This document shows positions 20,614 through 36,918 of a stretch of DNA of 64,000 nt, one piece after another (the first letter of the stretch is position 1; the number at the start of each line of letters is the position of its first letter). The DNA lies in contig CAVVEU010000005.1 in NCBI GenBank assembly GCA_963747235.1, forward strand, positions 32,001 through 96,000, read 5' to 3'. This stretch comes from an uncultured Candidatus Rokubacteria bacterium. Its GTDB lineage: Bacteria > Methylomirabilota > Methylomirabilia > Rokubacteriales > CSP1-6. The notes below the pieces were generated by a model. That model was not told the origin of the DNA and made no database searches. It was given only the letters and a program-made list of their open reading frames with translations. The position numbers and the translations under genes were made by a program.

Positions 20614-21711
20614 ATGGCCCAGCACCGCATCCGGGCGGTCTACATGCGCGGCGGCACCAGCCGCTGCCTCGCCTTTCACGAGCGCGATCTGCCGCCGGCG
20701 GGGCCCGAGCGCGACCGCATCCTGCTCTCCGCGCTGGGCAGCCCCGATCCCTACGGCCGCCAGCTCAACGGGCTCGGCGGCGGCATCTCCTCGCTGTCGA
20801 AGGCCTTCATCATCGGCGCGCCCACGCACCCGGACGCCCAGGTGGACTACACCTTCGCGCAGGTCGAGGTGGGCCGGGCCGTGGTGGACTACACCGGCAA
20901 CTGCGGCAACTGCTCCTCGGCGGTGGGCCCCTTCGCCATCGACGAGCGGCTCGTGCCGTCGGCCGACGGGGAGACCCCGGTACGGATCCACAACACCAAC
21001 ACCAAGAAGATCATCGTGGCGCGCGTGCCGGTCACGGACGGCGAGGCCGCGGTGCTGGGCGACTTCGAGCTGCCGGGCGTGGCCGGCCTCGGCGCGCGCA
21101 TCGCGCTCGACTTCCTCGACCCGGGCGGCTCCCGAACCGGCCGGCTGCTGCCCTCCGGTCGGGCGCGCGAGATCATCGCGGGCGTCGAGGCTTCGATGGT
21201 GGACGCCACCAACCCGATGGTCTTCGTTCGCGCCAAGGACCTCGGGCTGACCGGCACCGAGACGCCGCAGGCGATGGACGGCGACCGAGCGCTGGTGGCG
21301 CGGCTCGAGGCCATTCGCGTGGGCGCCGCGGAGGCCATGGGCATCCCGGGCAGCGCGGCCACCCCGAAGATCGCGGTGGTGGCGCCGCCCACCGGCTTCG
21401 TCGCGCTCGACGGCGCCGCCTACGACGCCGAGCAGACCGACGTGGTGGCGCGCTGCATCTCGATGGGCAATGCCCATCGCGCGTTCGCGCTGACCGCGGC
21501 CATGTGCCTGGCGGTGGCCGCCCAGATCGACGGCACGGTGGTGAGCGAGTGCGCGGGCGGCCGCGTGGGCGACCTGCGGCTCGGGCACCCGTCGGGCGTG
21601 CTCCCGATCGCGGCGACGGTGGGCCGCAAGGACGGCGCGGCCTGGGCCGAGCGCGTGACCGTGTACCGGACGGCGCGCCGGCTGATGGAAGGCTACGTGA
21701 GGGTGCCGTGA
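20614..21711 (+). CDS. prpF: PrpF/FldA family isomerase (2-methylaconitate cis-trans isomerase-like)
   Basis: YMRGGTSR, GSPDPYGRQLNGLGGG.SSLSK, GNCGN, GHPSG, RTARRLMEG. Confidence 0.9.
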   Translation: MAQHRIRAVYMRGGTSRCLAFHERDLPPAGPERDRILLSALGSPDPYGRQLNGLGGGISSLSKAFIIGAPTHPDAQVDYTFAQVEVGRAVVDYTGNCGNCSSAVGPFAIDERLVPSADGETPVRIHNTNTKKIIVARVPVTDGEAAVLGDFELPGVAGLGARIALDFLDPGGSRTGRLLPSGRAREIIAGVEASMVDATNPMVFVRAKDLGLTGTETPQAMDGDRALVARLEAIRVGAAEAMGIPGSAATPKIAVVAPPTGFVALDGAAYDAEQTDVVARCISMGNAHRAFALTAAMCLAVAAQIDGTVVSECAGGRVGDLRLGHPSGVLPIAATVGRKDGAAWAERVTVYRTARRLMEGYVRVP

Positions 21712-21747: not shown

Positions 21748-22902
21748 ATGTCGTTGCCGACACTCACCGACGAGCACGAGATGCTCCGCCGGACGGTCCG
21801 CGCCTTCGTGGAGAAGGAGGTCGCGCCCCAGGTGGACGCCTGGGAGGAAGCCGGGCGGATCCCGCGCGCGTTCTGGCGGCGGCTCGGCGAGCTGGGCCTC
21901 CTCGGGCTCGAGTTCCCCACCGAGTACGGCGGCGCGGGCGGCGATTTTCTCTCCAGCGTGGTGCTGGGCGAGGAGATGGCCCGCTGCCGGTCCGGCGGCG
22001 TGGCCTTCAGCGTGCTGGTGCACACCGACATGTCCTCGCCCTGGCTCACCCGCTACGGTACCGACGCGCAGAAGCGGCGGTATCTGCCGGGCATCGTGAG
22101 CGGCGAGACGGTGTGCGCCCTCGGGATCACCGAGCCGGGCTCCGGCTCCGACATGGCGAGCATCACGACGCGGGCGGTACGCGACGGCGACAATTACAAG
22201 CTGACCGGGAGCAAGATCTTCATCACCAACGGCGTCTACGGCGATCTCTACTTCGTCGCCGCGCGGACCAGCCCCGGCACCGCGGAGCGCCGCCACGCCG
22301 GCATCTCGATGTTCCTCGTCGAGCGGGACACGCCCGGCTTCACGGTGAGCCGTCGGCTCGACAAGATGGGCATGCGCGCCTCCGACACCGCGGAGCTGTC
22401 GCTGCAGGATTGCCCGGTGCCCGCGGAGAACCTGCTGGGCGAGGAAGGCCGCGGCTTCCACCAGCTCGCGGCGGGGTTGCAGCGGGAGCGCATCATGGCC
22501 GCGGTGCTCGCGCTCTCCGGCGCGGCGCAGGCCCTCGAGGACACGCTCGCGTACGTGCGCGAGCGGCACGCCTTCGGCGAGCCCCTCGCGGCCAAGCAGG
22601 CACTGCGGCACCGGGTGGCCGACATGGCCACCGAGATCGAGGCGGCGCGCCATCTCGTCCACCACGCGGCGGCGCTCTACACCGCCGGCCGCGACTGCGT
22701 CACCGAGGTCTCGATGGCGAAGCTCTTCGCCACCGAGGTGGCCAACCGCGTCGCCTACCAGGCGGTGCAGCTCCACGGCGGCTACGGCTACATGAGCGAG
22801 TTCCCGGTCGAGCGCTTCTTCCGCGACGTGCGCCTGTGGACCATCGCCTCCGGCACCTCCGAGATCATGCGCGAGATCGTCGCGAAGCGGCTCCTCTCGT
22901 GA
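21748..22902 (+). CDS. Acyl-CoA dehydrogenase
   Basis: [47 protein letters not shown]. Confidence 0.93.
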
Positions 22903-23656
22903 CCGACGCTCCCGCCGCCAGCCTGACCGCGGAGGGCCCGGTGGCCCGGCTCACGCTCGAGCGACCGCAGGCCCGCAACGCGCTCAGCCGCGCGATGGCG
23001 GATGCGCTCGACGCGGCGCTCGAGCGCCTGGCCACGATGGACGGAGACGCGCGCGGTGGTGGTGGCCGGCCGCGGGCGGTCCTTCTGCGCGGGCGCCGAC
23101 ATCAGCGAGATGCCGACGCTGGCGCCCGCGGAGGCGGAAGGCGCTGGCCGGGCGCTGGCAGCGCATCATGGACGGCTTCGCGGCCCTGCCCCAGGTCACG
23201 ATCGCGGCGGTGCAGGGCCACGCCCTGGGCGGCGGGCTCATGCTCGCGATCGCCCAGGACCTGCGCGTGGCCGAGGCTTCCGCGCGCTTCGGGCTGCCCG
23301 AGGTCACGCTCGGCTTCAATCCGGGCTACGGCATCGCGCGGCTGCTCGACATCGCGGGCGGCGCCCACGCGCGCGATCTCATGCTCACCGCCCGGACCGT
23401 GGACGCGGCCGAGGCGCACCGCATGGGCCTGGTCACCCGCGTGGTGGCGGACGGCGCGCTCGAGGCCGCCGCGCTCGAGCTGGCGCAGCAGGTCGCGCGC
23501 TCGCCGCGGGGCGGGCTGGCCGCGACCAAGGCCATCACCGCCGACCTCCGCGCGGGCCGGGCGGGCGCCGAGCCCCGCGCCTACGGCGCGCTCCGGGCCG
23601 CCCCCGACGCGCAGGCGCGCATCGCGGCCTTCCTGAATCGCCGCCGGATCTCCTAG
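22899..23656 (+). CDS. Enoyl-CoA hydratase/isomerase; frameshifts near 23045 and 23140
   Basis: RLTLERPQARNAL, SFCAGADI, AAVQGHALGGG, FGLPEVTLG. Confidence 0.88.
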
Positions 23657-23683: not shown

Positions 23684-24718
23684 ATGGCCGCCACGCTTCC
23701 GCTCCTCTACACCCACGTGATGGGCAGCCACGGCTTCCCGTCGTGGTTCTGGACCGCGCTCGACAAGATCAAGGCGGGCGAGTACGGGCAGACCGACGTG
23801 CGCGAGACCTTCGACGACGCGACCCAGCTCGCGATCCGCGACCAGGAGCGCGCGGGCATCGACGTGCTCTGCGACGGCGAGATGCGCCGCTACTTCTTCG
23901 TGCAGACGTTCTACGGCCGCATGGAGGGCCTCGAGACGCTCGAGCCGCTGCGCAAGACCGGCCTCTACGCCTACGACAGCGTGCCGCGCTACCGCGCCAC
24001 CCGCAAGGTCACGGTGCCGAAGGGCCTCGGCACCGTGGACGAGTTCAAGTACCTGGTCACCCAGACCGACAAGCCGGTGAAGGCCACCTGCCCCGGGCCG
24101 GTGACGCTCTCGATCCACATCCAGACGCGGCCCGGCGACGCCTACGACGGAGACCGCCTCGCGCTCTGCTGGGATCTCGTGCCCGCGGTCAACGCCGAAC
24201 TGAAGGCGCTGGTCGCCGCCGGGGCGACGTGGATCCAGGTGGACGAGCCCTCCGCCGCCATCGTGCCCGGCCAGGCCGCCGAGTACGTGAAGATGTTCAA
24301 CGCCTGCGTCGAGGGCGTGAAGGCCCGGATCGGCTACCACGTCTGCTTCGGCAATCTCCTGTCGCGGCCGCGCGGCAAGCGGTCGTATCGGTGGATGTTC
24401 CCGATGCTGCTCGAGACCCGCTGCGACCAGTTCGTGTTCGAGTACGCCAACCGGGAGATGGCCGAGATCGAGATGTGGAAGGAGATCGGGGTGGACCGCG
24501 ACGTGGCCTGCGGGGTGGTTGACGTGAAGAGCTTCTACATGGAAACTCCCGAGGACATCGCGGAGCGGGTGGCCCTGTGCCTCCGATCCATCCCGGCGGA
24601 GCGGCTGTCGCTCCTGCCGGACTGCGGCTTCTTCCCGGTCCCGCGCTGGGTGGCGTTCGAGAAGCTCAAGCGTCTCACCGCCGGCGTGGCGCTGGCGCGC
24701 AAGCGGCTGCAGGGCTAG
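23684..24718 (+). CDS. Catalytic-domain-only MetE-like Zn enzyme (core methionine synthase / epoxyalkane:CoM transferase family), copy 1
   Basis: DQERAGIDVLCDGEMRR, IQVDEP, Zn ligands HVC, FEY and PDCG. At 344 aa it lacks the N-terminal folate-binding barrel. Confidence 0.88.
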   Translation: MAATLPLLYTHVMGSHGFPSWFWTALDKIKAGEYGQTDVRETFDDATQLAIRDQERAGIDVLCDGEMRRYFFVQTFYGRMEGLETLEPLRKTGLYAYDSVPRYRATRKVTVPKGLGTVDEFKYLVTQTDKPVKATCPGPVTLSIHIQTRPGDAYDGDRLALCWDLVPAVNAELKALVAAGATWIQVDEPSAAIVPGQAAEYVKMFNACVEGVKARIGYHVCFGNLLSRPRGKRSYRWMFPMLLETRCDQFVFEYANREMAEIEMWKEIGVDRDVACGVVDVKSFYMETPEDIAERVALCLRSIPAERLSLLPDCGFFPVPRWVAFEKLKRLTAGVALARKRLQG

Positions 24719-24733
24719 GACCAATCACTCTCA

Positions 24734-24779
24734 CAGAGGAGAGCCTCATGGCAACCGCAGAGGAGAGCCTCACGGCAAC
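24734..24779 (+). repeat. Tandem duplication (24-nt period) of the RBS plus start codon of the Liv-type SBP gene
   Basis: CAGAGGAGAGCCTCATGGCAAC (24734-24755) and CAGAGGAGAGCCTCACGGCAAC (24758-24779). Confidence 0.8.
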
Positions 24780-26052
24780 GACGAGACGCGAGTTCCTGAC
24801 CATGGTGGGCGGGGCGGCCGCGGCGGGCGCGGTGGCCGCGCCGGTGGTGGCGCGGGCGCAGGCGAAGAAGGGCGTGCCCACGGATCCGGTCAAGATCGGC
24901 GTGGTCGCCATCCGGGCCGGCATCGCGGCGCCGGTGGGGACCGCCGGGCTCCGCGGCACCGAGTGGTGGGCCGAGCGGGTGAACAAGGCGGGTGGCATCC
25001 TGGGCCGCAAGGTCGAGCTCGTGGTGGAGGAGGAATCCACCCCCAAGGACACCGTCGAGCGCTACCGCAAGCTCATCCTGCAGGACAAGGTCGAGGTCGT
25101 GCTGGGCGGCATCTCCACCGGCGTGACGCTGGCGCTGGCCCCGGTGGCCGAGGACCTGGCCACGCCGTGGCTCTCGTGGGACGGCACCACGCAGAAGGGC
25201 GTGGACGAGACCATGCCCAATCCCAAGTGGGCCTTCCGCAGCGTGGACAACGAGGTCGAGGCGATCGTGGCGGGCCAGCTCACCCCCAAGTACTTCAAGG
25301 GCATCAAGACGGTGGCGGGCATCGGCAACGACTACTCCTACGGCCACGACTGCTGGCAGACCTACCAGGCGGTGCTCAAGCGCTACATCCCGGACGTGAA
25401 GTTCGTGCTCGAGCTGTTTCCCAAGCTCGGGGTCACCGACTTCACCTCGCACATCGCGGCGATCCAGCAGTCGAAGGCGGATCTGCTGATGTGCTCGTTC
25501 TGGTCGGGCGACGCCACCATCATCATGAAGCAGGCGGCCGCGGTGGGCCTCTTCAAGACGATGAAGGGCGTGTTCACGACCGCGGGCGGCGTGCACGACT
25601 CGCTCAAGAAGGAGTTCACCCCCGAGGGGCTCCTGCTCGGCTACAACTCGATGTACTTCGACGATCCCAAGGGCAGCGCGCTGCTCAAGCAGTTCGTCCG
25701 CGAGTACAAGGCCAAGTACAACGAGTACCCGCCCTACGAGTGCGATCACGGCTACTTCTGCGCCGAGTCCTACAAGGCGGCGGTGGAGAAGGCCTACGCC
25801 TCGGCCGGCCAGTGGCCGTCCAAGGAGCAGACGGTGAAGGCGCTCGAGGGCATCGAGGTCGAGTCGCTCTCCGGCAAGCGGAGCTGGCGCGAGGATCACA
25901 TCCAGATGTGCAACTTCTACCAGGGCGTCACCACCCACAAGAACGCCTACGACTTCGTGACCGTCAACCCGCTCGAGGTCGTCTCCACCAAGCAGGGCAT
26001 GAAGCCGGCCGGCGCCAAGCTGATGGACTGGATCGCGGGCTGGAAGATCTGA
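24748..26052 (+). CDS. Branched-chain amino acid (Liv/HAAT) family ABC substrate-binding protein with Tat signal
   Basis: TRREFL Tat motif, VKIGV, NKAGGILGRKVEL, DYSYGHD; upstream of livHMGF-like genes. Confidence 0.9.
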   Translation: MATAEESLTATTRREFLTMVGGAAAAGAVAAPVVARAQAKKGVPTDPVKIGVVAIRAGIAAPVGTAGLRGTEWWAERVNKAGGILGRKVELVVEEESTPKDTVERYRKLILQDKVEVVLGGISTGVTLALAPVAEDLATPWLSWDGTTQKGVDETMPNPKWAFRSVDNEVEAIVAGQLTPKYFKGIKTVAGIGNDYSYGHDCWQTYQAVLKRYIPDVKFVLELFPKLGVTDFTSHIAAIQQSKADLLMCSFWSGDATIIMKQAAAVGLFKTMKGVFTTAGGVHDSLKKEFTPEGLLLGYNSMYFDDPKGSALLKQFVREYKAKYNEYPPYECDHGYFCAESYKAAVEKAYASAGQWPSKEQTVKALEGIEVESLSGKRSWREDHIQMCNFYQGVTTHKNAYDFVTVNPLEVVSTKQGMKPAGAKLMDWIAGWKI

Positions 26053-26053
26053 G

Positions 26054-26110
26054 CCCCCCCACCCTCCCTCCCCCTCGGGAGAGGCCGGTCCCCCCTCTCC
26101 GCGAGAGGGC
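26054..26110. repeat. Degenerate BoxC-like palindromes after the SBP gene
   Basis: CCCCCCACCCTCCCTCCCCCTCGGGAGAGG...CCCTCTCCGCGAGAGGG. Confidence 0.55.
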
Positions 26111-26114
26111 GCGT

Positions 26115-27106
26115 ATGGCCGCCGCGCCTTCCTGGCTCTGCTCACAACCGGCGTCGTCACCCTGCCGCGTCCCGCCGGCGCGCAGCCGGCGGGGCGCGTC
26201 TACCGTCTGGGCATCCTCGCGCCCACCGCCGCGCCGCCACCGTCGGAGCAGAACGTGGCCGTGATCCTGATCCCGAAGGCCCTGCGGAACATGGGCTATG
26301 CGCCGGGCCGCGATCTCGTGGTCGACGTGCGCTACGCCGAGGGGCAACTCGACCGGCTCCCCGGCGCTGGCGCGCGACCTGGTCCGGCTCCGGATGGACG
26401 TCATCGTGGCGATCAGCGCGGCCGCCGCACGGGCGGTCAAGGCGGCGACGACCACGATCCCGATCGTCCTGTACGGGAACCTCGACCCGGTCGCGGCCGG
26501 GCTCGTCAAGAGCCTCGCCAAGCCCGAGGGCAACGTCACCGGCGTCCTGATCGCGCCCGCCGGAACCCTGGCGGCCAAGAAGCTGGAGCTCCTCAAGGAA
26601 GCGGTCCCCGGGGCCGACCCGGATCGCCTTCCTCGCCCCCTCGGATCCCGGCATCAGGCTCCAGGTGCAGGAGACACGGCAGGCCGCGGCGACGCTCGGC
26701 ATCAAGCTCGCCGTCACCGAGGTCCAGGCCGGCGACTACGAGCGCGCCTTCGCCGCGCTGACGCCGAGCGGCCCGAGGCCCTCTTCGTCGGCGCGCACAC
26801 CTTCTTCGTCCGCGACCGGAAGCGGATCATCGCGCTCGCCGCCAAGCACCGTCTGCCCGCGATGTACGAATGGCCGGAGCAGGTCGAGGACGGCGGTCTG
26901 ATGTCCTACGGCAGCAGCCTCCCCGGAACCACCCGGCGGGTCGCCGAGTCTACGTGGACCGGCTCTTCAAGGGCGCCCGGCCCGGCGACCTGCCGGTCGA
27001 GCAGCCCGCCGAGTTCCAGCTCGTGATCAACCTCCGCACCGCCCGGGCCCTCGGGCTCGCCATCCCGCCGGCGCTCGTCGCGCGGGCCGATCGCGTCATC
27101 GAGTAG
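26115..27106 (+). pseudogene. ABC_sub_bind (PF04392-like) substrate-binding protein with at least 4 frameshifts; pseudogene or error-rich sequence
   Basis: Pieces in different frames: [108 protein letters not shown]. Confidence 0.8.
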
Positions 27107-27122
27107 CCGGAACGCTCTTCGC

Positions 27123-28010
27123 TTGACCGCGAACGTCGTCAACATCCTGATGAGCGGCATCTTCCACGCCGCCATCCTGTTCCTGGTCTCGGCGGGGCTG
27201 CAGCTCGTCTTCGGCGTGCAGAAGATCTTCAACCTCGCGTGCGGGTCGTTCTACGCCCTCGGCGCCTACGTGGGGGTCTCCGCGGTCGCCGCGTTCACGA
27301 CCGCGGGCGGGCCACCGTTCCTCTTCATCGTGCCGCTCGCGCTCGCGGGCATCCTGGTCGGCTCGGTGGGCCTCGTGGTGGAGCGCGGGCTGCTCCGCTT
27401 CGTCTACGACCGCGACGAGACCTTCCAGCTCCTGCTCACCTTCGCGCTCGTCCTCATGATGGAGGACGCGATCCGCCTCACCTGGGGCACCGCGCCCCAG
27501 TCGACCTCCGGGCACTACCTGCTCTACGGCCAGGCCCGGGTGCTGGGCGCCGTGATCCCCGTCTATAACTTGATCGTCATCGCGGCCAGCGTGCTGATCG
27601 CGGCGGGCCTCGGCTTCATGCTGACCCGCACCGCGTTCGGCCGCATCATCCGGGCCGCCGCCGACAACCGCGAGATGGCCGAGGCGCTCGGGGTGGACAT
27701 GCGCGGCGTCTACGCCCGGGTCTTCACCCTCGGCACCGCGCTCGGCACGCTCGGGGGCGCGCTCGTCATCCCGGCCACCGCGGCGATGAGCGAGATGGGC
27801 ATCGAGCTGATCGTCGAGGCCTTCGCGGTGGTGGTGATCGGCGGGCTCGGCAGCATGCGCGGCGCGCTGGTGGGCGCCCTCGTGGTCGGCGTGCTCCGCT
27901 CGGTGGCGATCAGCGTGTATCCCGAGATCGAGATGCTCCTGATCTACCTGATCGTGATCGCGGTGCTGCTCCTGCGCCCCCGTGGGCTCTTCGGCGGAGC
28001 GGCCGCGTGA
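27123..28010 (+). CDS. livH: Branched-chain amino acid ABC permease, LivH family
   Basis: Hydrophobic; AGLQLVFGV..IFNLA, RTAFGRIIRA..NREMA.ALGV, AFAVVVIGGLGS. Confidence 0.9.
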   Translation: MTANVVNILMSGIFHAAILFLVSAGLQLVFGVQKIFNLACGSFYALGAYVGVSAVAAFTTAGGPPFLFIVPLALAGILVGSVGLVVERGLLRFVYDRDETFQLLLTFALVLMMEDAIRLTWGTAPQSTSGHYLLYGQARVLGAVIPVYNLIVIAASVLIAAGLGFMLTRTAFGRIIRAAADNREMAEALGVDMRGVYARVFTLGTALGTLGGALVIPATAAMSEMGIELIVEAFAVVVIGGLGSMRGALVGALVVGVLRSVAISVYPEIEMLLIYLIVIAVLLLRPRGLFGGAAA

Positions 28011-28948
28011 AGGGGCGCGTGGTCCTGGGCCTGGCGCTCCTGGCGCTGCTCGTCCTGCCGCTCGTGCTGAGCCCCTACCGCCTGCTGCTCATGCTGCCGT
28101 TCATGGCCTACGGGGTGATCCTGCTCGGGCTCAACCTGCTCTTCGGCTACACCGGCCTCGTCTCCTTCGGCCACGCGCTCTTCGTGGGCATCGGGGCCTA
28201 CACCGGCGCCTTCCTCACCACCCACGCGGGCATCCGCTCGCTGGAGGTGATCGTGCTCGCCGCCGCGATCCTGGGCGCGCTCGCCGCCGCCCTGGTCGGC
28301 CTCCTCTGCGTGCGCTACGTGAAGATCTACTTCGGCATGCTCACGCTCGCCTTCGGCATGGTCTTCTACACCTTCCTGCTCAAGTTCTACCGGCTCACCG
28401 GCGGCGACGAGGGCATGCAGGTGCTGCGGCCGCTCCTGCTCGGGTTCAACCTGGACGCGATGCCGAAGACCACCTACCTGGTCGGCCCGTACTATTACTA
28501 CTGCCTGGGCGTGCTGGTGGTGGCCGCCGCGGTCATGTGGCGGATCGTGCACTCGCCCTTCGGCCTCTGCCTGCGCACGATCCGCGACAATCCGATGAAG
28601 GCGGAAGCGCTCGGAGTGAGCGTGACGCGCTATCGCTGGTACGCCTTCGTCATCTCGGCGGTGTTCGCGGCGGTGGGCGGCGCGCTCCTCGGTCCGCCCA
28701 CCGGCAACGTGGATCCGACACTGGCCTACTGGACCCACTCGGGCAATCTCGTGTTCATGGCCCTGCTGGGCGGCTTCGCGAGCTTCTTCGGCCCGGTGCT
28801 GGGCGCCTTCGTGTTCATCTTCCTGCAGGACACGGTGATGTCGGTGGTGCCCTACTGGCGGCTCGTCTTCGGCGCCATCCTGGCCATCATCGTGATCTTC
28901 GCCCCGGGCGGGCTCATGGGCTTCTTCGTGAGGCCGCGGCCGTCGTGA
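28007..28948 (+). CDS. livM: Branched-chain amino acid ABC permease, LivM family
   Basis: LNLLFGYTGLVSFGHA, YFGMLTLAF, TGGDEG, SPFGLCLRTIRDN, PGGLMG. Confidence 0.9.
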   Translation: MKGRVVLGLALLALLVLPLVLSPYRLLLMLPFMAYGVILLGLNLLFGYTGLVSFGHALFVGIGAYTGAFLTTHAGIRSLEVIVLAAAILGALAAALVGLLCVRYVKIYFGMLTLAFGMVFYTFLLKFYRLTGGDEGMQVLRPLLLGFNLDAMPKTTYLVGPYYYYCLGVLVVAAAVMWRIVHSPFGLCLRTIRDNPMKAEALGVSVTRYRWYAFVISAVFAAVGGALLGPPTGNVDPTLAYWTHSGNLVFMALLGGFASFFGPVLGAFVFIFLQDTVMSVVPYWRLVFGAILAIIVIFAPGGLMGFFVRPRPS

Positions 28949-29742
28949 CCGGCGAGGCCATTCTCGAGGCGCGCGACGTCCGCAAGCTCTACGGCGATTT
29001 CGTCGCGCTCGACGGGGTGAGCCTCGCGGTGGGCGCGGGCGAGTTCGTCTCCATCATCGGCCCCAACGGCGCGGGCAAGTCCACGCTCATCAACGTGCTC
29101 ACCGGCGTGCTGCGGCCCACCGCGGGGACGGTGCGCTTCAAGGCGCGCGACGTGGCCGGCATCGGCCCGGTGGCGCTGACCCGGCTCGGCCTCGCCCGGA
29201 GCTTCCAGCTCGTGCAGATCTTCCCCGACCTCACCGTGCTCGAGACCCTGCTGGCCCCGGTCATCTCCCGGCTCGGCCGGGGCACGTCGCTCTTCCGCTC
29301 GCTGGCCGGCGATCGCGAGGTGCAGGACGGCGCGCTCGAGGTGGCGGAGCTCTTCGGGCTGGCCGACAAGCGTCACGTGCCCGCGCGCCAGCTCCCCCAG
29401 GGCGACAAGAAGCTCCTCGACGTGGCCTCCGCCTTCGCCCTCAAGCCGGAGATCATCTTGCTGGATGAGCCCACCAGCGGGGTGAGCACCGCGGAGAAGT
29501 CGGCCATCATGGAGATCCTGGTGACCGCGTCCCGGCGCATGGGCCTCAAGGCGATCATCCAGGTCGAGCACGACATGGATATCGTCTTCGGCTACTCGGA
29601 CCGCATCGTCGCGCTCCACCAGGGGAAGATCCTGGCCGACGCGACGCCCGCCGCGATCCGCGCCGACGCGCGCGTGGTGGACATGGTCATCGGCCGCACC
29701 CACCACATACCCTCTCCCCCTTCGGGGGAGAGGGCAGGGTGA
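28945..29742 (+). CDS. livG: Branched-chain amino acid ABC ATPase, LivG family
   Basis: GPNGAGKST Walker A, GLARSFQ, LLDEPTSG, VEHDM. The stop codon lies inside a BoxC-like repeat. Confidence 0.9.
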   Translation: MTGEAILEARDVRKLYGDFVALDGVSLAVGAGEFVSIIGPNGAGKSTLINVLTGVLRPTAGTVRFKARDVAGIGPVALTRLGLARSFQLVQIFPDLTVLETLLAPVISRLGRGTSLFRSLAGDREVQDGALEVAELFGLADKRHVPARQLPQGDKKLLDVASAFALKPEIILLDEPTSGVSTAEKSAIMEILVTASRRMGLKAIIQVEHDMDIVFGYSDRIVALHQGKILADATPAAIRADARVVDMVIGRTHHIPSPPSGERAG

Positions 29743-29746
29743 GGGG
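29710..29746. repeat. Best-preserved BoxC-like element, overlapping the livG stop and livF RBS
   Basis: CCCTCTCCCCC-TTC-GGGGGAGAGGG perfect 11-bp stem, followed by CAGGGTGAGGG. Confidence 0.75.
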
Positions 29747-29747
29747 G

Positions 29748-30455
29748 ATGCTCAGCGTGGAGAGCATCGACGTCTTCATCCAGTCGAGCCATATCCTGCG
29801 GCAGGTCTCCCTCGAGGTCCGCGACCGCGAGGTGGTCTGCCTGGTGGGCCGCAACGGCGCGGGCAAGACCACCACGCTGCGCGCGATCATGGGGTACCTC
29901 CACCCGCGGGCCGGCCGCATCGTCTTCCAGGGCGAGGCGATCCACGGGCGCCGCACCCACGAGATCGCCCAGCGCGGCGTCGGCTTCGCGCCGGAGGACG
30001 GCGGGATCTTCACGGATCTCACGGTGGCGGAGAACATCGAGATCGCCACCTGGACGCGGCCGGGCGGCCGCCCCGCGGCGGAGCGCGTCGAGCGCGCCTA
30101 CGAGGTGTTCCCGGCGCTGCGGGGCTACCGCCACCGCAAGGGCCCCGAGATGAGCGGCGGCGAGCGGAAGATGCTCTCGGTGGCGCGGGCGCTCGCGCTC
30201 GATCCCCACATGCTGGTGCTCGACGAGCCCTTCGAGGGCCTCTCGCCCGCGATCATCCCGGCGGTCAGCCGCGGCCTCGCCGAGATCACCCAGCGCGGGC
30301 ACGCGATCCTGCTCGCCGAGTCCAATATCCACCACGTGCCCGAGTTCACCACGCGCCTCTACGTGATCGAGCGCGGCGAGATCATCTTCGCGGGGCGCCC
30401 CGACGCGGTCCACGACGACGCGGCGGTCATGCGGATCATCGGCGGGGCGGCGTGA
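29748..30455 (+). CDS. livF: Branched-chain amino acid ABC ATPase, LivF family
   Basis: GRNGAGKTT, MSGGERKML, LDEPFEGLSP. Confidence 0.9.
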   Translation: MLSVESIDVFIQSSHILRQVSLEVRDREVVCLVGRNGAGKTTTLRAIMGYLHPRAGRIVFQGEAIHGRRTHEIAQRGVGFAPEDGGIFTDLTVAENIEIATWTRPGGRPAAERVERAYEVFPALRGYRHRKGPEMSGGERKMLSVARALALDPHMLVLDEPFEGLSPAIIPAVSRGLAEITQRGHAILLAESNIHHVPEFTTRLYVIERGEIIFAGRPDAVHDDAAVMRIIGGAA

Positions 30456-30472
30456 GTGCCGCGACGCGATAC

Positions 30473-31333
30473 TCAGCGCGCGGCGGCGCGGATCTCGTCG
30501 AGGACGGGCAGGATGTAGCGGCGGAAGTGGGCCGGGTTCTCGGCCATCGGGAAATGGCCGATCTCGGTCATGACCGTGAAGCGCGCGCCCGGGATCTTCT
30601 CGGCGGTGAGCCGCGTGTCCTCCGGCGTGCACGAGAAATCGTACTCGCCGGTCAGCAGGTAGAGCGGGCAGCGCCCGGTGTCGATCTGGCCGACTCGATC
30701 GCGGAAGTCGCCGTCCACTCGGTAGAAGTGGAGATCGCCCTTGAACACGCCCGGCCCGCCCTGCATGTAGCCCCAGAGCGTCTCCCAGCGCGTCTCGTCC
30801 GGGCTCTGCGGGGCGATGAGCCCCGACATGAGCGCGCCGCAGAGCTCGCCGCCGTGCACGTCGGGGCGATGGAGCCACCCGGTGTCGTCGTACCAGGGTG
30901 GCTGGTAGGCGGCGGACTCGAGCCCGATCAGGGCGCGGAAGCGCTCGGGGTGCGTCCGCGCCAGCTCGAGCACGATCTTGCCCCCGATCGAGCAGCCGAG
31001 CACCACCGGCCGCTCGAGGCCGAGCGCGGCGCAGAAGGCCAGGATGAGATTCACGTAGCCGCGCGTGGTGAGGCGATACTCCTCGTCCTGCCAGCCCGCC
31101 GGCGGCAGGGACTTGCCGTGCCACGGCATGTCGAAGGCCAGCACGCGGAAGTGGCGGGTGATCGCCTCGTCGTTCAGCAGGTGGCGGAACTGGCGGCCGT
31201 CGGCGCCCGCGGTGTGCAGGCACACGAGCGGGATCCCCTGCCCCGCCTCCTCGAAGTAGAGGCGGTGCGCGCGGCCGTCGAGAGACAGGCGCAGGTACGT
31301 CCCCTTGATCGGCTCGAAGATCGGCTCGGTCAC
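30473..31333 (-). CDS. Alpha/beta hydrolase
   Basis: CLHTAGADG, FDMPWHGKS, GCSIGG nucleophile elbow, GEYD, GHFPMAENP. Confidence 0.88.
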   Translation of the reverse strand: MTEPIFEPIKGTYLRLSLDGRAHRLYFEEAGQGIPLVCLHTAGADGRQFRHLLNDEAITRHFRVLAFDMPWHGKSLPPAGWQDEEYRLTTRGYVNLILAFCAALGLERPVVLGCSIGGKIVLELARTHPERFRALIGLESAAYQPPWYDDTGWLHRPDVHGGELCGALMSGLIAPQSPDETRWETLWGYMQGGPGVFKGDLHFYRVDGDFRDRVGQIDTGRCPLYLLTGEYDFSCTPEDTRLTAEKIPGARFTVMTEIGHFPMAENPAHFRRYILPVLDEIRAAAR

Positions 31334-31723
31334 TCAGCCCCTCCGCCGGGGCGCGGCCACCACGTCCTTGACGTAGCGGAGGTGGGCCATGAGCGGCGCC
31401 AGGTCGCCCTCGATCCGGGCCACCCCGAGCTTCTTCATCGCGAAGAGGTCGTGGTATCCGGGCGCGGGCATGGGCTCCCAGAAGCGCTGCCAGGTCTCGG
31501 CGGAGGCGCGCAGCGCGAAGGTCCAGGAGCGCATCAGGAAGGGCCCGCGCTCGACCGCGGCCAGACGGCCTTCCACCACCCGCACCAGGAACTCGACGTC
31601 GCCGGCCTCGACCAGGAAGGTGGCGGTGAGATAGCGCCCCCTCCGGACCAGCCCCGCATCGTTATTGACCAGATCCGGGAGAGATAGGATGCTCGCATGG
31701 GTCTCGGCCGCGGCAACGCTCAT
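31334..31723 (-). CDS. Small SCP2 (sterol carrier)-like protein, directly adjacent to the hydrolase
   Basis: C-terminal 129 aa of ORF 31334..32416: VNNDAGLVRRGRYL..FLVRVVEGR..W.FAL.A..E.W..F..RIEGDL..LMAHLRY. Confidence 0.65.
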   Translation of the reverse strand: MSVAAAETHASILSLPDLVNNDAGLVRRGRYLTATFLVEAGDVEFLVRVVEGRLAAVERGPFLMRSWTFALRASAETWQRFWEPMPAPGYHDLFAMKKLGVARIEGDLAPLMAHLRYVKDVVAAPRRRG

Positions 31724-31732
31724 CGCCGGGAC

Positions 31733-31740
31733 AGTATAAT
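31733..31740. promoter_or_regulatory. Overlapping divergent -10 elements
   Basis: AGTATAAT gives TATAAT on + (toward metE-like copy 2) and TATACT on - (9 nt before ATG 31723). Confidence 0.55.
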
Positions 31741-31771
31741 CGCTCTCATCCCTAGTAAGGAGGACACGCTG

Positions 31772-32806
31772 ATGGCCGCTCTTCCGCTGATCCCATCCAC
31801 CGTCGTCGGCTCGCACGGCAAGGCCGGCTGGTGGTTCACCGCCGTGAAGGCCTACGAGGCCGGAGACATGGGGCCCGGCGACCTCGAGGAGATGTTCGAC
31901 GACGCCGCCGACACCGCGATCCGCGACATGGAGCGGGCCGGCCTCGACATCATCACCGACGGGGAGGTGCGCCGCCTCGACGGCTACGTGGATTCCTACT
32001 ACGCGGTCATCAAGGGCATCGAGCCGCTGCCGGTGCGCCGCAAGGCCGGGCCGTGGGGCTACGACCAGCAGACGCGCTACGAGGCCACCGGGCGCATCGA
32101 GGCGCCCGCGGGCGGCCTCGGCATCATCAAGGAGTTCGCGTACCTCAAGGCCCACACCAGCCGGGCCGTCAAGGCCACCTGCGCGGGGCCGCTCACCTTC
32201 GGCTCCCGCATCCATCCCGGCAAGCTGTACAAGGGCGTGGTGGACGTGGCCGAGCGCTTCGCCGAGGTGATCAACGCCGAGCTCCGGGGCCTGGTGGACG
32301 CGGGCGCCGACTATATTCAAATCGATGAGCCGGCGCGCGGCAATGTGAGCGGCGAGGAGATGGCGCGTCTCTTCAACCTGGCCACCGAGGGCGTGAAGGC
32401 CAAGCTCGGCTTCCACATCTGCTTCGGCAACCGCTTCGGCCGCTCACGGTTCGATCGCTCCTACCGGCCATATTTTCCGGGCGTGCTGAAGGCCCGGGCG
32501 GACCAGCTCGTGCTGGAGTTCGCGGGCCGGGAGCTCTCGGAGCTCGACCTCTGGAAGGAGTACGGCCAGGATCGCGAGCTGGGGGCCGGGGTCATCGACG
32601 TGAAGGGCTTCAATACCGACAGCCCGGAGGACGTGGCCGCGCGCATCCGGCGGGTGCTCACGGTCTGCCGCCCCGAGAAGCTCTACGTCAATCCCGACTG
32701 CGGCTTCGGCTGGTCTCCCCGCTACATGTGCAATCAGAAGGTGCGCGCGCTCGCGGCCGGCGCGGTACTGGCCCGCCAGCAGCTCACCGGCGCGCGCGGG
32801 GGGTAA
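31772..32806 (+). CDS. Catalytic-domain-only MetE-like Zn enzyme, copy 2
   Basis: STVVGSH, DMERAGLDIITDGEVRR, IQIDEP, Zn ligands HIC, LEF and PDCG; AAGGAGG RBS. Confidence 0.88.
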   Translation: MAALPLIPSTVVGSHGKAGWWFTAVKAYEAGDMGPGDLEEMFDDAADTAIRDMERAGLDIITDGEVRRLDGYVDSYYAVIKGIEPLPVRRKAGPWGYDQQTRYEATGRIEAPAGGLGIIKEFAYLKAHTSRAVKATCAGPLTFGSRIHPGKLYKGVVDVAERFAEVINAELRGLVDAGADYIQIDEPARGNVSGEEMARLFNLATEGVKAKLGFHICFGNRFGRSRFDRSYRPYFPGVLKARADQLVLEFAGRELSELDLWKEYGQDRELGAGVIDVKGFNTDSPEDVAARIRRVLTVCRPEKLYVNPDCGFGWSPRYMCNQKVRALAAGAVLARQQLTGARGG

Positions 32807-33008: not shown

Positions 33009-34290
33009 ATGCCCGGAACGAAAGTCATCGCGATGGCGGCCGCCCTGTTGTGCGCGGGCCTGCCGGCCGTCGCCACCGCCCAGACCGAGGAAAGTGCCGG
33101 CGTCGTCACCACCGTCAACGGTGACGCCACCCTGATCCGCGCGGTGGCCGCCGCGCGGCCCGTCTCGCTGCAGATGCGCGACGAGATCTTCGTGCGCGAC
33201 CGCATCCATACCCAGCCGCACTCCCTGGTGCGCGTGCTCCTGGGTGGCAAGGCCCTCATCACGGTGCGCGAGCTGTCGGTCCTCACCGTGACCGAGGACG
33301 ATGGCCGAGTCACGGTGGATCTTCAGTCCGGGAAGATCGGGGTGGCGGTGGTCAAGGGCCGCATGCGCCCAGGTGAGGTGATCGAGATCCGCTCGCCGAA
33401 CGCGACCGCCGCCGTGCGGGGCACCGTCTTCGTGGTCGAGGTGGATCCGATCAAGGCCGGCGAGGCGATCACCACGACCCGCGTCCATCTCTTCCACGGC
33501 GCGCTCGACGTGAGCGCGCACCTCGATCCCTCGAAGCCGACGGTCCGCCTCGCGGAGCTGCAGAGCGTGGTGGTGGCGGGCAATGCGCTGGGGTCGGTAC
33601 GCCCGATCTCCCGTGACGCGGTCGCCACGCTGACCGCGGATCTGAAGCCGAAGCAGATGCAGACCAAGGACGCTCCCGACGAGTTCAAGAGTCCCCTCAT
33701 GGCGCGCGAGCAGGGCCGTGCGGTCCAGCTCGCCACCGCGCTGCTCCCGCCCCTGCCCGGCGGGCCACCCCTCCCGGGCGGGCTCAAGACCGTGAAGGGC
33801 ACCGTGGCGGGCGTGACCGGTGTCGCGACGAACCTGACCGACGCCACGGCCGAGACGCTCGATCGCCTGATGGACACGCTCGGCCTCGGCGACACGCTGG
33901 TGGGCGGGCTGGTCGAGGGCGTCGGGGACACGCTGCAGGGCACCGTGGGCGCGCTCGGCAACACGCTGACGAACACGGTGGGTGGAGTCGGCAACACCCT
34001 GACGAACACGGTCGGCGGGCTCGGCGGCAGCGTCGGCGGGCTCGGCGGCACCGTCAGCGGTCTCGGCGGTACGGCCGGTGGGAGCCTTGGCGGTACAGGC
34101 GGTGGCAGCCTCGGTGGCACGGTCGGCAGCCTGGGTGGCACCACCGGCAGCCTCGGTGGGGACCGTCGGTAGCCTCGGCGGTACGGTCGGCGGAACCGTT
34201 GGTGCCGTCGGCGGGACCGTGGGCAGCGTCGGCGGGACCGTGGGCGGGGTGGTGGGCGGACTGGGCGGATTGCTCGGCGGCGGCCGCTAA
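33009..34290 (+). CDS. Secreted FecR-domain protein with Gly/Thr/Val/Leu-rich repetitive C-terminus; frameshift near 34160
   Basis: Signal peptide (AVATA-Q), AGVVTTVNGDA, DRIHT, IRSPNATAAVRGTVF FecR signature; tail of GGTVGSL-like heptads ending GGLLGGGR*. Confidence 0.8.
33890..34285 (+). repeat. Intragenic tandem repeats encoding GNTLTNTVGG / GGTVGSL units
   Basis: GGCAACACGCTGACGAACACGGTG.. repeated; many GGCAGCCTCGGTGGCACGGTC-like 21-nt units. Confidence 0.8.
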
Positions 34291-34305
34291 AAGGACCCCG
34301 AGACC

Positions 34306-36918
34306 ATGACCGACCGTCGCGACCCTGCGCGTGAACGTGGCATTGTCTGGTACCCCGCGGACTTCTCCCGCGGGGGACTGGTGGCGGGCCTGCCCGATGA
34401 TCTCGAGCCGCGATTGCTCGAGCCCGGGCAGCCCGCCACCTTCTCACCCGACGAGGCCGGCGTGCTGCTCCTCGACGGCCCGGTGGACGATCTCGACGCG
34501 AGCCTGCTCGAAGCGGCGCGGCACGCCCTCGTGCCCGCGGTCGTGCTCTCGGAATCCCCGGAAGCGGCCCCGATGGCCCGGGGCTTCGTCACGCTCACGC
34601 TCCCGGTGGGCCCCGCCACGCTGGCGAGCGTGCTGCGCGCGGCGTGCGACCAGGCCCGCGTCACGCGCGAGGCGAAGGAGAGCACACGGCAGCTCGAGGA
34701 GTTGAACGCCATCGGCGTCCGCCTCTCGGGCGAGCGCGACACCAAGCTCCTGCTCGAGCTGATCTTGACCAAGGCGCGTAGCATCACCCGGAGCGACGCG
34801 GGCTCCATCTACCTGGTCGAGACCGCGACCGACGGCACGCGCCGGCTGCGCTTCGAGCTGGCCCAGAACGACAGCGTGCCGGTCGAGTTCAACGCGGTCG
34901 CGCTGCCGCTCAGCCGGGAGAGCCTGGCCGGCCACGTGGCGCTCACCGGCGAGATCCTCGACGTGGCCGACGCCTACGCGCTGCCCGCGGACTGCCCGTA
35001 TCGCTTCAACCCGGACGTGGACGCCCTCGCCGGCTATCGCACCAAGTCCCTGCTCGTCCTGCCGATGCAGACGCCGGAGGGCGAGATCATCGGCGTGCTC
35101 GCCCTCATCAACTGCAAGCGCGAGAGCGGACGGCCCTTCGCCACGACGGCGGTCATCGAGCGCGAGGCGCTCCCCTACTCCACCGCCTTCCGCAACCTCG
35201 CCGCGTCGCTCGCTTCCCAGGCCGCGGTGGCCCTGGCCAACAGCAATCTCTTCCGCGAGCTGACCCGCCGGCAGGCGCGCCTGGAAGCCCTCGTGGACGT
35301 GAGTCAGCGCGCGACGCGCCTCTGGCCGCCCGCGACGGTGCAGCGGCGCATCGCTGATCTCTACGTCGGGCTCCTCCACGCGGACGCGATGGCCTTCCAC
35401 CTGGTGGATGAGTCCCATCTCGTTCGCGTGGAAGTGCGCGGCGAAGGCGTGGATCTGCTCCTCCCCGAGAAGGTCGCGATGGGCATGGGGCCGATCGGGC
35501 GGGTTGCCGCGACCGGCGAGCCGCTCGCCATCATGGACCTGGCCGCCCGCGGGTGGCTCGATCCCGAGGCCCGCGAGAGCGCCGCGCGTCTCGGCATGCG
35601 GGCGGGCCTCGCCGTTCCGGTGCGCGCCGGCGATCGGCTGGTGGGCGTGCTCACGGCATTGACCAGCCAGGTCGCCGCGTTCTCCGACGACGACGTGGCG
35701 GTGGCCAGCACCTTCGCGGCGCAGGCCGGCATCGCGGTCGAGAACTCGCGCCTCTACGCGGAGCTCGAGCGCGCGCTGGAGGGCGTGCAGAAGTCCCAGG
35801 ACCAGCTCGTGCAGGTGGAGCGGCTCCGGGCCCTCGGCGAGATGGCCGCGGGCGTGGCCCACGACTTCAACAATCTCCTGGCCGTCGTCATGCTGCGGAC
35901 CGAGCTACTGCTGGCCAGAGGGCAGGCCCCCGCGGTCGCGGAGAGCCTGACCATGATCCGCCAGGCCGCGCAGGACGGCGCGCAGACGGTGCGGCGCATC
36001 CAGGAGTTCACCCGCACGCGCAGCACGCGGCCCTTCGGCCAGGTGGACATGCACCAGGTGCTGCACGAGGTCGTGGAGCTGGCCCGGCCCCGGTGGCGCG
36101 ATCAGGCGCAGAGCCGCGGCGTCACCTACGACGTGCGCGTCAAGGGTGGGAAGGTCCCGCTCGTGGCGGGCACCGCGGAGGAGCTGCGCGAGGCCCTGCT
36201 CAACCTGCTGAACAATGCCCTCGAGGCGATGCCCGCCGGCGGCACGTTCACGTTCAGCGCGGCCGCCGAGGGCGACCGGGTGGTGATCCGCGCGGCCGAC
36301 GGGGGCTGCGGCATGTCCGAGGAGACCCGGCGGCGCGTTTTCGAGCCCTTCTTCACGACCAAGGGCGCCCAGGGCAATGGCCTCGGCCTGGCGGTGGTCT
36401 GGGGCATCATGGCCCGGCACGGCGGCGAGATCGCGGTGGACAGCGTCCTGGGCCAGGGCACCACGTTCACGATCCGCCTGCCCGTGCCGGCGGTGCTGCC
36501 GATGGACCAGGGGACCGAGGGCGCCCTGGGGCTGCCCGAGGGGCTACGGGTCCTCGTGGTGGAGGACAACCAGGAGATCCTCCGCTCGCTCGGGGACGTG
36601 CTCCGCGACCATGGCTGCGAGGTGGTGGAGGCCCCGAACGGTGCCACCGCCCTGGCGCGGCTCGAGACCGGGGCCGTGGACCTGGTCCTGACTGATCTCG
36701 CCATGCCCGGGGTGTCCGGCTGGGAGGTCGCCTCGGCCTGCCGGGAGCGCTATCCCGAGATGCCGGTCGGGCTGATCACCGGCTTCGGGGACCAGCTCGA
36801 GCCGGAAAAGCTCGAGCGCCACGGCATCCAGTTCGTGGTCGCCAAGCCCTTCTCGTCCGACGAGCTGCTCCAGGTGGTCGCCACCGCGCTGAAGGGGTCA
36901 CGGCGCGCCCGCGGCTAG
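34306..36918 (+). CDS. Cytoplasmic hybrid histidine kinase: GAF-GAF-HisKA-HATPase-REC
   Basis: DAGSIYLV / YRTKSLLVLPM GAF, second GAF (FAAQAGIAVENSRLY), AAGVAHDFNNLL, FEPFFTTK..GNGLGL, LTDLAMP. Confidence 0.9.
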   Translation: MTDRRDPARERGIVWYPADFSRGGLVAGLPDDLEPRLLEPGQPATFSPDEAGVLLLDGPVDDLDASLLEAARHALVPAVVLSESPEAAPMARGFVTLTLPVGPATLASVLRAACDQARVTREAKESTRQLEELNAIGVRLSGERDTKLLLELILTKARSITRSDAGSIYLVETATDGTRRLRFELAQNDSVPVEFNAVALPLSRESLAGHVALTGEILDVADAYALPADCPYRFNPDVDALAGYRTKSLLVLPMQTPEGEIIGVLALINCKRESGRPFATTAVIEREALPYSTAFRNLAASLASQAAVALANSNLFRELTRRQARLEALVDVSQRATRLWPPATVQRRIADLYVGLLHADAMAFHLVDESHLVRVEVRGEGVDLLLPEKVAMGMGPIGRVAATGEPLAIMDLAARGWLDPEARESAARLGMRAGLAVPVRAGDRLVGVLTALTSQVAAFSDDDVAVASTFAAQAGIAVENSRLYAELERALEGVQKSQDQLVQVERLRALGEMAAGVAHDFNNLLAVVMLRTELLLARGQAPAVAESLTMIRQAAQDGAQTVRRIQEFTRTRSTRPFGQVDMHQVLHEVVELARPRWRDQAQSRGVTYDVRVKGGKVPLVAGTAEELREALLNLLNNALEAMPAGGTFTFSAAAEGDRVVIRAADGGCGMSEETRRRVFEPFFTTKGAQGNGLGLAVVWGIMARHGGEIAVDSVLGQGTTFTIRLPVPAVLPMDQGTEGALGLPEGLRVLVVEDNQEILRSLGDVLRDHGCEVVEAPNGATALARLETGAVDLVLTDLAMPGVSGWEVASACRERYPEMPVGLITGFGDQLEPEKLERHGIQFVVAKPFSSDELLQVVATALKGSRRARG

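Follow-up and report, generated by a model that had tools for sequence, protein, structure and literature searches.

We analyzed a stretch of 64,000 nucleotides from an uncultured Candidatus Rokubacteria bacterium (contig CAVVEU010000005.1 of assembly GCA_963747235.1, positions 32,001 to 96,000), hereafter called the window, in which two genes for MetE-like zinc proteins, here named MetA and MetB, lie on either side of a Liv-type ABC importer. Judged by sequence comparison, both proteins belong to a distinct and uncharacterised clade of single-barrel ("core") MetE-type zinc enzymes, and their genes are embedded in a run that also encodes methylcitrate-type and acyl-CoA-converting enzymes (Table 1). 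The G+C content of the window is 67-75%, its closest relatives among public genomes are labelled Rokubacteria/Methylomirabilota, and the genome holding it comprises 5.57 Mb on 42 contigs and is rated 88% complete.

Codon-position G+C in combination with Pfam searches defines a run of 12 co-directional genes from citrate synthase (CS) to LivF (17.4-32.8 kb region), or 13 including MetB where the hydrolase-SCP2 pair is absent. The initial annotation of this DNA, made from the sequence alone, did not mention the CS gene at the head of the run, the broken enoyl-CoA hydratase (ECH) gene and the broken gene for a second binding protein (PF04392).

Table 1. Genes and features from citrate synthase to the region downstream of MetB, in window positions.
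Feature	Position	Strand	Basis
Citrate/2-methylcitrate synthase (CS), head of run	17451 to about 18578	+	Pfam Citrate_synt, 410 bits; end set by homology
Aconitase-family hydratase, 645 aa, PRK07229 type	18673..20610	+	NF005558, 850.7 vs. cut-off 612
PrpF-family isomerase/tautomerase	20614..21711	+	Pfam PrpF, 363.5 bits
Short-chain acyl-CoA dehydrogenase (ACAD)	21748..22902	+	three ACAD domains
Enoyl-CoA hydratase (ECH), frame broken twice	about 22899..23656	+	three-frame translation
MetA, core MetE-like zinc enzyme, 344 aa	23684..24718	+	Pfam Meth_synt_2
Liv-type (Peripla_BP_6) solute-binding protein, twin-arginine (TAT) signal	24748..26052	+	Pfam, 195.5 bits; N-terminus ...TRREFL
Second binding-protein gene (ABC_sub_bind, PF04392), at least 4 single-base indels	about 26115..27106	+	Pfam
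LivH-type permease	27123..28010	+	BPD_transp_2, 119 bits
LivM-type permease	28007..28948	+	BPD_transp_2, 131 bits
LivG-type ATPase	28945..29742	+	ABC_tran, 95.5 bits; start GTG 28945 overlaps LivM stop
LivF-type ATPase	29739..30455	+	ABC_tran, 101 bits
Alpha/beta hydrolase (accessory)	30473..31333	-	Abhydrolase_1, 75 bits
SCP2-fold protein, 129 aa (accessory)	31337..31723	-	predicted structure
MetB, core MetE-like zinc enzyme, 344 aa	31772..32806	+	Pfam Meth_synt_2
FecR-domain protein and GAF-histidine kinase-receiver	33009..36918	+	Pfam

Enzyme and importer genes of the run

The CS exceeds the threshold of TIGR01800 (455, cut-off 421.3), a subfamily model for 2-methylcitrate synthase/citrate synthase II that does not separate citrate from methylcitrate synthases. 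The aconitase-family hydratase fails the AcnD equivalog (TIGR02333, 138.8 vs. 1419.85), and the PrpF-family protein matches the prpF model TIGR02334 (312.8, cut-off 440.55) and the oxalomesaconate (OMA) tautomerase model (312.1, cut-off about 440) equally well, in both cases below the threshold. For the ACAD the top NCBIfam match is acryloyl-CoA reductase (363.9, below the cut-off of 640). A gene for the 2-methylisocitrate lyase PrpB is not encoded in the module from CS to MetB. As the genome contains a PrpB-like gene elsewhere (303 bits, cut-off 354) together with five loci of the CS family and three or more of the aconitase family, the CS and aconitase of the run are extra copies for a special purpose.

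The solute-binding protein gene starts 30 bp after MetA, and LivHMGF follow further on. The closest solved relatives of this binding protein are weak matches (8tg1, 1.2e-15; 4ey3, 1.3e-14). Structures 4ey3 and 4evq, which we take to be binders of benzoate derivatives from Rhodopseudomonas, are too distant to name its ligand. The PF04392 gene is present in some relatives only, and the spacing between the binding protein and LivH varies among related loci.

Single-base indels are found in the ECH gene (two), in the PF04392 gene (at least four) and in a CHASE histidine kinase gene, whose N-terminus is split (16041-17195/14243-16936). Three-frame translation of the ECH region and a comparison with three relatives placed one additional base near 23042-23049 and another near 23138-23140. 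In the CS gene there is no in-frame stop past the conserved C-terminus ...PLDKR (about 18575), where the relatives have a stop immediately after DKR. On other contigs (C20, C13, C3, C8), genes for MetH, CS and aconitase are fragmented as well. We read the pattern as a sign of assembly errors in this draft metagenome-assembled genome rather than of pseudogenes or gene decay.

Downstream of MetB, the FecR gene and/or the histidine kinase gene recur in several relatives (L002, L005, L006, L007, L010, L094, L095, L096 and L101), and they possibly encode a sensor for the cluster. About 3 kb upstream of CS the window encodes a benzoylformate-decarboxylase-like thiamine pyrophosphate enzyme (PRK07092; 11912-14227, + strand), and a gene of the same type directly follows the MetB-type gene of locus L155 (10699-12549, + strand; 436 and 461 bits vs. 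cut-off 493).

MetA and MetB among the MetE-type zinc enzymes

Both paralogs are real. MetA and MetB are 45% identical over 344 residues, and the G+C content at third codon positions is 0.95 and 0.91, respectively. The open reading frame of MetB opens at 31697; we took the ATG at 31772 as start codon, because it is preceded by a Shine-Dalgarno sequence (AAGGAGGA) and yields exactly 344 residues, equal to MetA. The proteins match the Pfam family Meth_synt_2 (PF01717) with 108.9 and 87.2 bits (cut-off 21), from profile positions 2-3 to 316-317 of 324. The KATC.GP and HxCFGN motifs listed in the initial annotation were found in both sequences, and so were intact zinc ligands (His219/Cys221/Glu253/Cys314 in MetA, His215/Cys217/Glu249/Cys310 in MetB), which align with the ligands of MetE and MesD.

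For a closer look at the active site, MetA and MetB were aligned with ten further proteins: five paralogs encoded in this genome, two proteins of the MetB type from other phyla, the MesX-adjacent MesD of A. lwoffii (L062), Salmonella MetE (L061) and EtnE of Nocardioides JS614 (L060), which is encoded beside alkene monooxygenase genes. The homocysteine-binding triad described for MetE/MesD (S433/E484/D599; PMC7857596) is kept as S15/E66/D187 in MetA and S14/E65/D185 in MetB (motifs GS / DGE / DEP). Zinc tetrad and triad taken together, all seven functional residues of MetE are preserved in both proteins. EtnE differs at two of the three triad positions, with Asn for Ser and Lys for Glu (GN / DGK). 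As the Ser/Glu/Asp triad is kept, unlike in EtnE, homocysteine is most likely the thiol bound by MetA and MetB.

This comparison also bears on epoxide opening by a non-amino-acid thiol in the manner of epoxyalkane:coenzyme M transferase (EaCoMT), one of the two reactions suggested in the initial annotation. MetA and MetB share the Pfam family and the zinc ligands with EtnE/XecA, a catabolic, non-biosynthetic member of the family. However, the pocket residues differ as described, sequence identity to EtnE is 26-30%, and EtnE branches outside the MetA/MetB clade. The genomic context of alkene oxidation is missing as well: no monooxygenase gene was found between CS and MetB or among the Pfam-scanned annotated open reading frames of the related loci, and the nearest monooxygenase-family gene of the window, a luciferase-like one at 7129-8046, lies about 9 kb upstream of CS. 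We consider such a reaction extremely improbable.

The description of MetA and MetB as lacking a folate domain proved to be correct, since Meth_synt_1 yields only weak cross-matches on the same barrel of the 344-residue proteins. A genome-wide search for this half (PF08267) gave three weak matches, all on Meth_synt_2 genes. A split MetE, as known from archaea, was rejected, as both paralogs carry zinc ligands and a Meth_synt_1 half was not found in the genome. Catalytic barrel, metal ligands and homocysteine pocket are common to MetA/MetB, MetE and archaeal split MetE, but MetA and MetB lack the Meth_synt_1 half, fused or separate, and are 24-26% identical to the C-terminal half of MetE. A search for fused forms among longer proteins returned two matches, a 760-residue protein with a weak aminotransferase match and a PfkB kinase fusion at 32% identity, neither of which was informative. 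Furthermore, folate, corrinoid and methionine genes are absent within about 10 kb of MetA and MetB, and no named equivalog covers the two proteins: all NCBIfam models stayed below their cut-offs, with PRK04326 as the best one (212.7 and 201.2 vs. 406), and PRK09121, PRK00957 and others also failed.

The closest solved sequence is 3rpd (E 3.5e-33), which is treated as a MesD in PMC7857596. An AlphaFold model of MetB (mean pLDDT 70.8) matches 3rpd and the C-terminal barrels of MetE with TM scores of 0.73-0.80 (0.74 for 3rpd). Similar to MesD, MetA and MetB consist of a single MetE C-terminal barrel of about 340 residues with the same zinc tetrad and homocysteine triad; MesD occurs in aerobes that also have MetH, and its methyl donor is given as unknown (PMC7857596). 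In contrast, MetA and MetB are 28-32% identical to the MesX-adjacent MesD (119-141 bits), have no adjacent MesX and have other conserved neighbors. If a MesD is defined as a protein that shares about 55% identity (390 bits) or more with those of the ACIAD3523 type and is encoded next to MesX (DUF1852), neither of them belongs to this group.

Pairwise identities between MetA, MetB and paralog C13 are 44-47%, compared to 28-32% with MesD, 26-30% with EtnE and 24-26% with the C-terminal half of MetE. In a quick maximum-likelihood tree of 49 rows (one row dropped, long outgroup branches, root not established), 40 of the 49, including all MetA-type and MetB-type sequences, C13 and L045, form one clade with an SH-aLRT support of 97. 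This clade is apart from MesD with C18, from EtnE with C4 and from MetE. The placement among the core MetE clades, which the initial annotation had asked for, was thus obtained with respect to MesD, MetE and EtnE.

Gene neighborhoods in Rokubacteria and other phyla

To follow the gene order in related genomes, we scanned them with MetA and obtained 59 loci, in which the window proteins were located by tblastn; 45 of these loci are anchored on a MetA-type gene. The position of MetA directly before the importer is kept, with the binding protein as the next gene in 26 of the 35 loci that extend at least 1.5 kb downstream. Just upstream of the MetA-type gene, 27/40 loci have ECH or ACAD, and a MetB-type gene follows downstream in 19 of the 28 loci with at least 8.5 kb of downstream sequence. 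The recurring order in Rokubacteria is CS-aconitase-PrpF-ACAD-ECH-MetA-SBP-LivHMGF-(hydrolase-SCP2)-MetB, where SBP denotes the solute-binding protein. The initial annotation had named a linkage that is not conserved elsewhere as a reason to give up its proposal; for the importer the opposite was found, and the linkage with ACAD/ECH and the methylcitrate-like genes is likewise retained.

A second scan of metagenomes with an alignment of MetB-type proteins gave 80 loci, 68 of them with at least 800 bp upstream of the MetB-type gene. In this set LivF directly precedes the gene in 45 cases, SCP2/hydrolase genes lie between in 4, aconitase or PrpF is found in 8, and another gene or nothing recognised in 11. 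Without the hydrolase-SCP2 pair, MetB stands directly after LivF on the same strand (e.g., L005, L006, L007, L020). Among the 11 other loci is one metagenome contig (L105:2-1990) that has a MetA-type gene immediately upstream of the MetB-type gene, without transporter genes in between.

The hydrolase and the SCP2-like gene, included in the system proposed by the initial annotation, turned out to be accessory: of the 28 loci that extend far enough downstream, 12 contain the pair, and many otherwise identical clusters are without it. The SCP2 assignment itself holds by fold, not by sequence. The AlphaFold2 model of the 129-residue protein (pLDDT 92.7) has an SCP2 fold (Foldseek: 2cx7, TM 0.70, and also UbiJ-SCP2 and alkylsulfatase SCP2 domains) and its Atlas neighbors are named SCP-2, while no Pfam family matches at E<=10. 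The nearest solved structure of the hydrolase is esterase 5egn (E 4e-17). In the window both genes share one frame with a single TGA between them, and in L134:3261-4487 (409 aa) and L027:14729-16054 (442 aa), both on the minus strand, they are fused; therefore, the two proteins act in concert, with a hydrophobic ester or thioester as the probable substrate. Read-through of the TGA by selenocysteine incorporation was rejected, as L004 and L108 have TAG where most relatives have TGA, and the start codon directly after the stop indicates ordinary coupling. MetB is indeed divergent from the pair, with a spacer of 48 bp that contains a perfect TATAAT (31735-31740). A consensus scan called no promoter in this region, and the bidirectional promoter proposed in the initial annotation is plausible.

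Outside the Rokubacteria, distant MetB-type genes are 59-73% identical, and CS lies within the locus in 12 of 13 cases (7 Dehalococcoidia, 5 Entotheonella/Tectimicrobiota). The order CS-PrpF-aconitase-MetB or CS-aconitase-PrpF-MetB is found in the five Entotheonella/Tectimicrobiota genomes and in five complete metagenome loci. In three further metagenome loci, which are cut, only aconitase with or without PrpF is visible beside the MetB-type gene. Neighboring genes of the module are 0-25 bp apart in L159 and L163. A LysR gene upstream of the module in L163 is not MetR-like; its best match (170.8 bits, cut-off 250) is a selenium-associated LysR. The seven Dehalococcoidia loci contain CS followed by the MetB-type gene; in L052 the end of CS (9999) and the start of the MetB-type gene (9995) share 5 bp, and a distant member of the MmgE/PrpD family (140 bits, cut-off 950) is encoded downstream. 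The flanks outside this module vary from locus to locus. As the module-linked MetB-type sequences branch below the LivF-linked ones of Rokubacteria in the tree, whose root is not established, the data fit a scenario in which the CS module with MetB is the older arrangement and the ACAD-ECH-MetA-importer block was inserted later in Rokubacteria.

A sample of Dehalococcoidia contained 11 genomes out of 151 with a match at E<=1e-40. Six of these 11 genomes (seven loci) hold a MetA-type gene that is 53-58% identical to MetA, and in five of the seven loci this gene forms a divergent pair with a family member of 30% identity. Its neighbors include genes for a family III CoA-transferase and an AMP ligase (L075) or for an acetyl-CoA hydrolase/transferase and an enolase-family protein (L076). 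MetB-type genes occur without MetA-type genes in Entotheonella and some Dehalococcoidia loci, and MetA-type genes without MetB-type genes in other Dehalococcoidia, which argues against the obligate heterodimer considered earlier. The family III CoA-transferase follows the MetA-type gene in L075, and a member of this family is also encoded in the window about 8.5 kb downstream of MetB, together with a second, intact enoyl-CoA hydratase (41256-43230, + strand).

The constancy of the CS module raises the question whether its products are also the substrates. Homocysteine could add through its zinc-activated thiol to aconitate, 2-methylaconitate or itaconate formed by CS, aconitase and PrpF (or the MmgE/PrpD-family protein), or the reverse elimination could take place; this would be EaCoMT-type chemistry without a leaving group and with homocysteine as the thiol. 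Across phyla, the MetB type is constantly accompanied only by genes whose products form or isomerise tricarboxylates, start and stop codons overlap or abut, and PrpB, which catalyses the final step of the methylcitrate cycle, never occurs in the module. Furthermore, the Arg and Lys residues that are invariant in the MetB-type alignment (R67, R68, R229, R253, K134, K278, R317) would suit a polycarboxylate. However, some of these basic residues are also found in MesD and MetE, and the MetA-type contexts in Dehalococcoidia with CoA-transferase III, AMP ligase and enolase-family genes are quite different. We know of no homocysteine-tricarboxylate adduct or of an enzyme making one, and as the idea is derived purely from the neighborhood we regard it as improbable.

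Operons for the methylcitrate cycle can have the layout prpB-prpC-acnD-prpF, and the MetE-like gene sits in the slot of PrpB. One could therefore imagine that the MetE-like protein replaces 2-methylisocitrate lyase or acts on another non-thiol substrate, and the UROD/MetE superfamily includes decarboxylases, which are among the lower-ranking Foldseek matches of the MetB model. Against this, the kept zinc site and amino-acid-binding triad fit thiol alkylation and not a tricarboxylate lyase, and we consider it very unlikely. Replacement of PrpB in particular was rejected: all five genomes that carry the CS-MetB cluster have PrpB-type genes elsewhere (four above the equivalog cut-off), in addition to the PrpB-like gene in the genome of the window. 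The known variant with AcnD and PrpF resembles the module in that a citrate-synthase-II-type enzyme, an aconitase-family dehydratase and a PrpF-family isomerase are encoded together; it differs in the type of aconitase (PRK07229 here, not AcnD), in the PrpF score below the equivalog cut-off and in the MetE-like gene in place of PrpB.

Possible reactions of MetA and MetB

The reading that we favor, with a probability of about 0.42, is that MetA and MetB are homocysteine S-methyl- or S-alkyltransferases with a non-folate donor, coupled to the methylcitrate-type module and, in Rokubacteria, to the importer. L-homocysteine or a very close amino-thiol would be bound and its thiol activated on zinc, and the resulting thiolate would attack a co-substrate other than folate at a methyl or alkyl carbon. 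Homocysteine would probably receive this group from a compound that is imported or formed in the pathway, and the remaining carbon skeleton would then be burnt as acyl-CoA to propionyl-CoA and passed on to the methylcitrate-type enzymes, a direction of flux that we infer from the gene content. Alternatively, a tricarboxylate made by these enzymes could be the co-substrate. Demethylation of a sulfonium, as the initial annotation had it, or of another compound is possible. Such a direct transfer has counterparts: in BHMT and MmuM, zinc-activated homocysteine is methylated directly by a small imported donor (betaine, S-methylmethionine), and the gene adjoins a transporter. These enzymes differ from MetA and MetB (PF01717) in belonging to an unrelated fold family (S-methyl_trans, PF02574).

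The paralogs in the genome of the window point in the same direction. It encodes at least seven full-length Meth_synt_2 proteins, among them those at C34:8355-9413, C33:339054-340035, C4:86594-87748, C13:242407-243384, C18:23096-24145 and C33:313929-314936, and further ones at lower score with the PRK04326 model (C29, C40, C8, C15). Paralogs C34, C33b and C4 adjoin genes for Peripla_BP_6 binding proteins and Liv ABC transporters, and their vicinity also holds a gene for an ACAD, a glyoxalase-family protein or an alcohol dehydrogenase. This fits enzymes acting on imported compounds. MetH is encoded elsewhere in the genome, so MetA and MetB are not needed as housekeeping synthase, which also speaks for this reading. 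Paralog C18 is 59% identical to MesD. One Meth_synt_2 paralog lies inside an open frame of 1051 residues with Phosphodiest and NTP_transferase domains, possibly an ORF run-on.

Several points weigh against this assignment. The cluster encodes no candidate methyl carrier: neither a corrinoid protein nor MesX (DUF1852) was found in it, and a genome-wide search for MesX also remained negative, a weak result since the control search gave no match either. The conserved triad is just as compatible with a plain methionine synthase. The confidence of the MetB model is moderate only, and the separation of the clade comes from a quick tree with long branches that lacks MesA, MesB and MesC. Furthermore, the generic families ACAD, ECH and Liv abound in these genomes, so that part of the linkage could be gene order inherited among close relatives; identities to the window proteins are 76-98% in most Rokubacteria loci. 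Finally, if the frameshifts in the ECH gene and in one binding-protein gene are real, the operon is decaying in this genome.

The main competing explanation is that MetB, and with it MetA, are cobalamin-independent methionine synthases of a B12-sparing module, which would be co-expressed with the methylcitrate enzymes as a cobalamin-independent route for propionyl-CoA whenever MetH and methylmalonyl-CoA mutase are without cofactor. This is in line with the conservation of all seven MetE residues, with a CS that fits the 2-methylcitrate/citrate synthase II subfamily and with the presence of both B12-dependent enzymes in the genome. These are MetH and methylmalonyl-CoA mutase, with MM_CoA_mutase genes in three places (C14, C5 and C40, the last split into two matches). 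There is also a precedent in M. tuberculosis, where prpD/prpC (Rv1130/Rv1131) and metE (Rv1133c), the B12-independent alternatives in both pathways, have neighboring gene numbers (PMC4428469). On the other hand, at gathering score an Rfam scan of the window and 14 related loci returned only one tRNA and no cobalamin or SAM riboswitch, and the missing folate-binding half in the genome means that the methyl donor would still have to be explained. Two of the genomes with the CS-MetB cluster, G003 and G005 of the Dehalococcoidia, already own a separate CS(prpC)/PrpB/PrpD-like/ACAD cluster, which makes the CS-MetB cluster a second system there. At least seven paralogs in one genome, several of them beside importers, are hard to explain by biosynthesis alone. 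Taken together, we regard a B12-sparing role as unlikely, although less so than the other alternatives.

Within the reading as homocysteine S-methyl- or S-alkyltransferases, a bolder version can be formulated. The MetA/MetB clade would be a fifth kind of core MetE, whose co-substrate is derived from, or leaves as product of, the CS/PrpF/aconitase module, either as a new non-folate, non-corrinoid methyl donor with which aerobes make methionine or by homocysteine-tricarboxylate addition, and the ten or more Rokubacteria paralogs with Liv-type importers would strip methyl or alkyl groups from imported compounds. In this full form we consider the proposal rather unlikely. A full-text literature search of limited coverage found no paper linking a core MetE to methylcitrate-type genes.

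Core methionine synthases of aerobes are an open problem, in which even the donor of MesD is unknown. A clade with the full homocysteine and zinc machinery and with different, conserved neighbors in at least three phyla is therefore a testable lead to a non-folate donor or, alternatively, to a new way of alkylating thiols that is linked with the metabolism of propionate and tricarboxylates. If true, this would correct the widespread automatic naming of such proteins as "methionine synthase" or MetE and would help to explain the large expansion of paralogs in the abundant, uncultured Rokubacteria of soil.

Some further observations concern propionate and methionine genes near or beyond the cluster. 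The large subunit of methylmalonyl-CoA mutase is encoded at 1479-3038 (+ strand, 695 bits) with a match to its B12-binding domain just upstream of the window (C5:31517-31780), which places B12-dependent propionyl-CoA metabolism about 20 kb from the cluster. In the Dehalococcoidia genomes G003 (C2:303801-311048) and G005 (C21:19067-25352) split MetH-like genes for the homocysteine-, pterin- and B12-binding parts are accompanied by a second PrpB-like gene, which scores below the equivalog cut-off; this is another co-location of methylcitrate-type and methionine-synthase-type genes. Apart from these, an open reading frame at 50379-51230 (- strand) of the window matches the catalytic domain of Tle1-like phospholipase effectors of type VI secretion systems with 187 bits.

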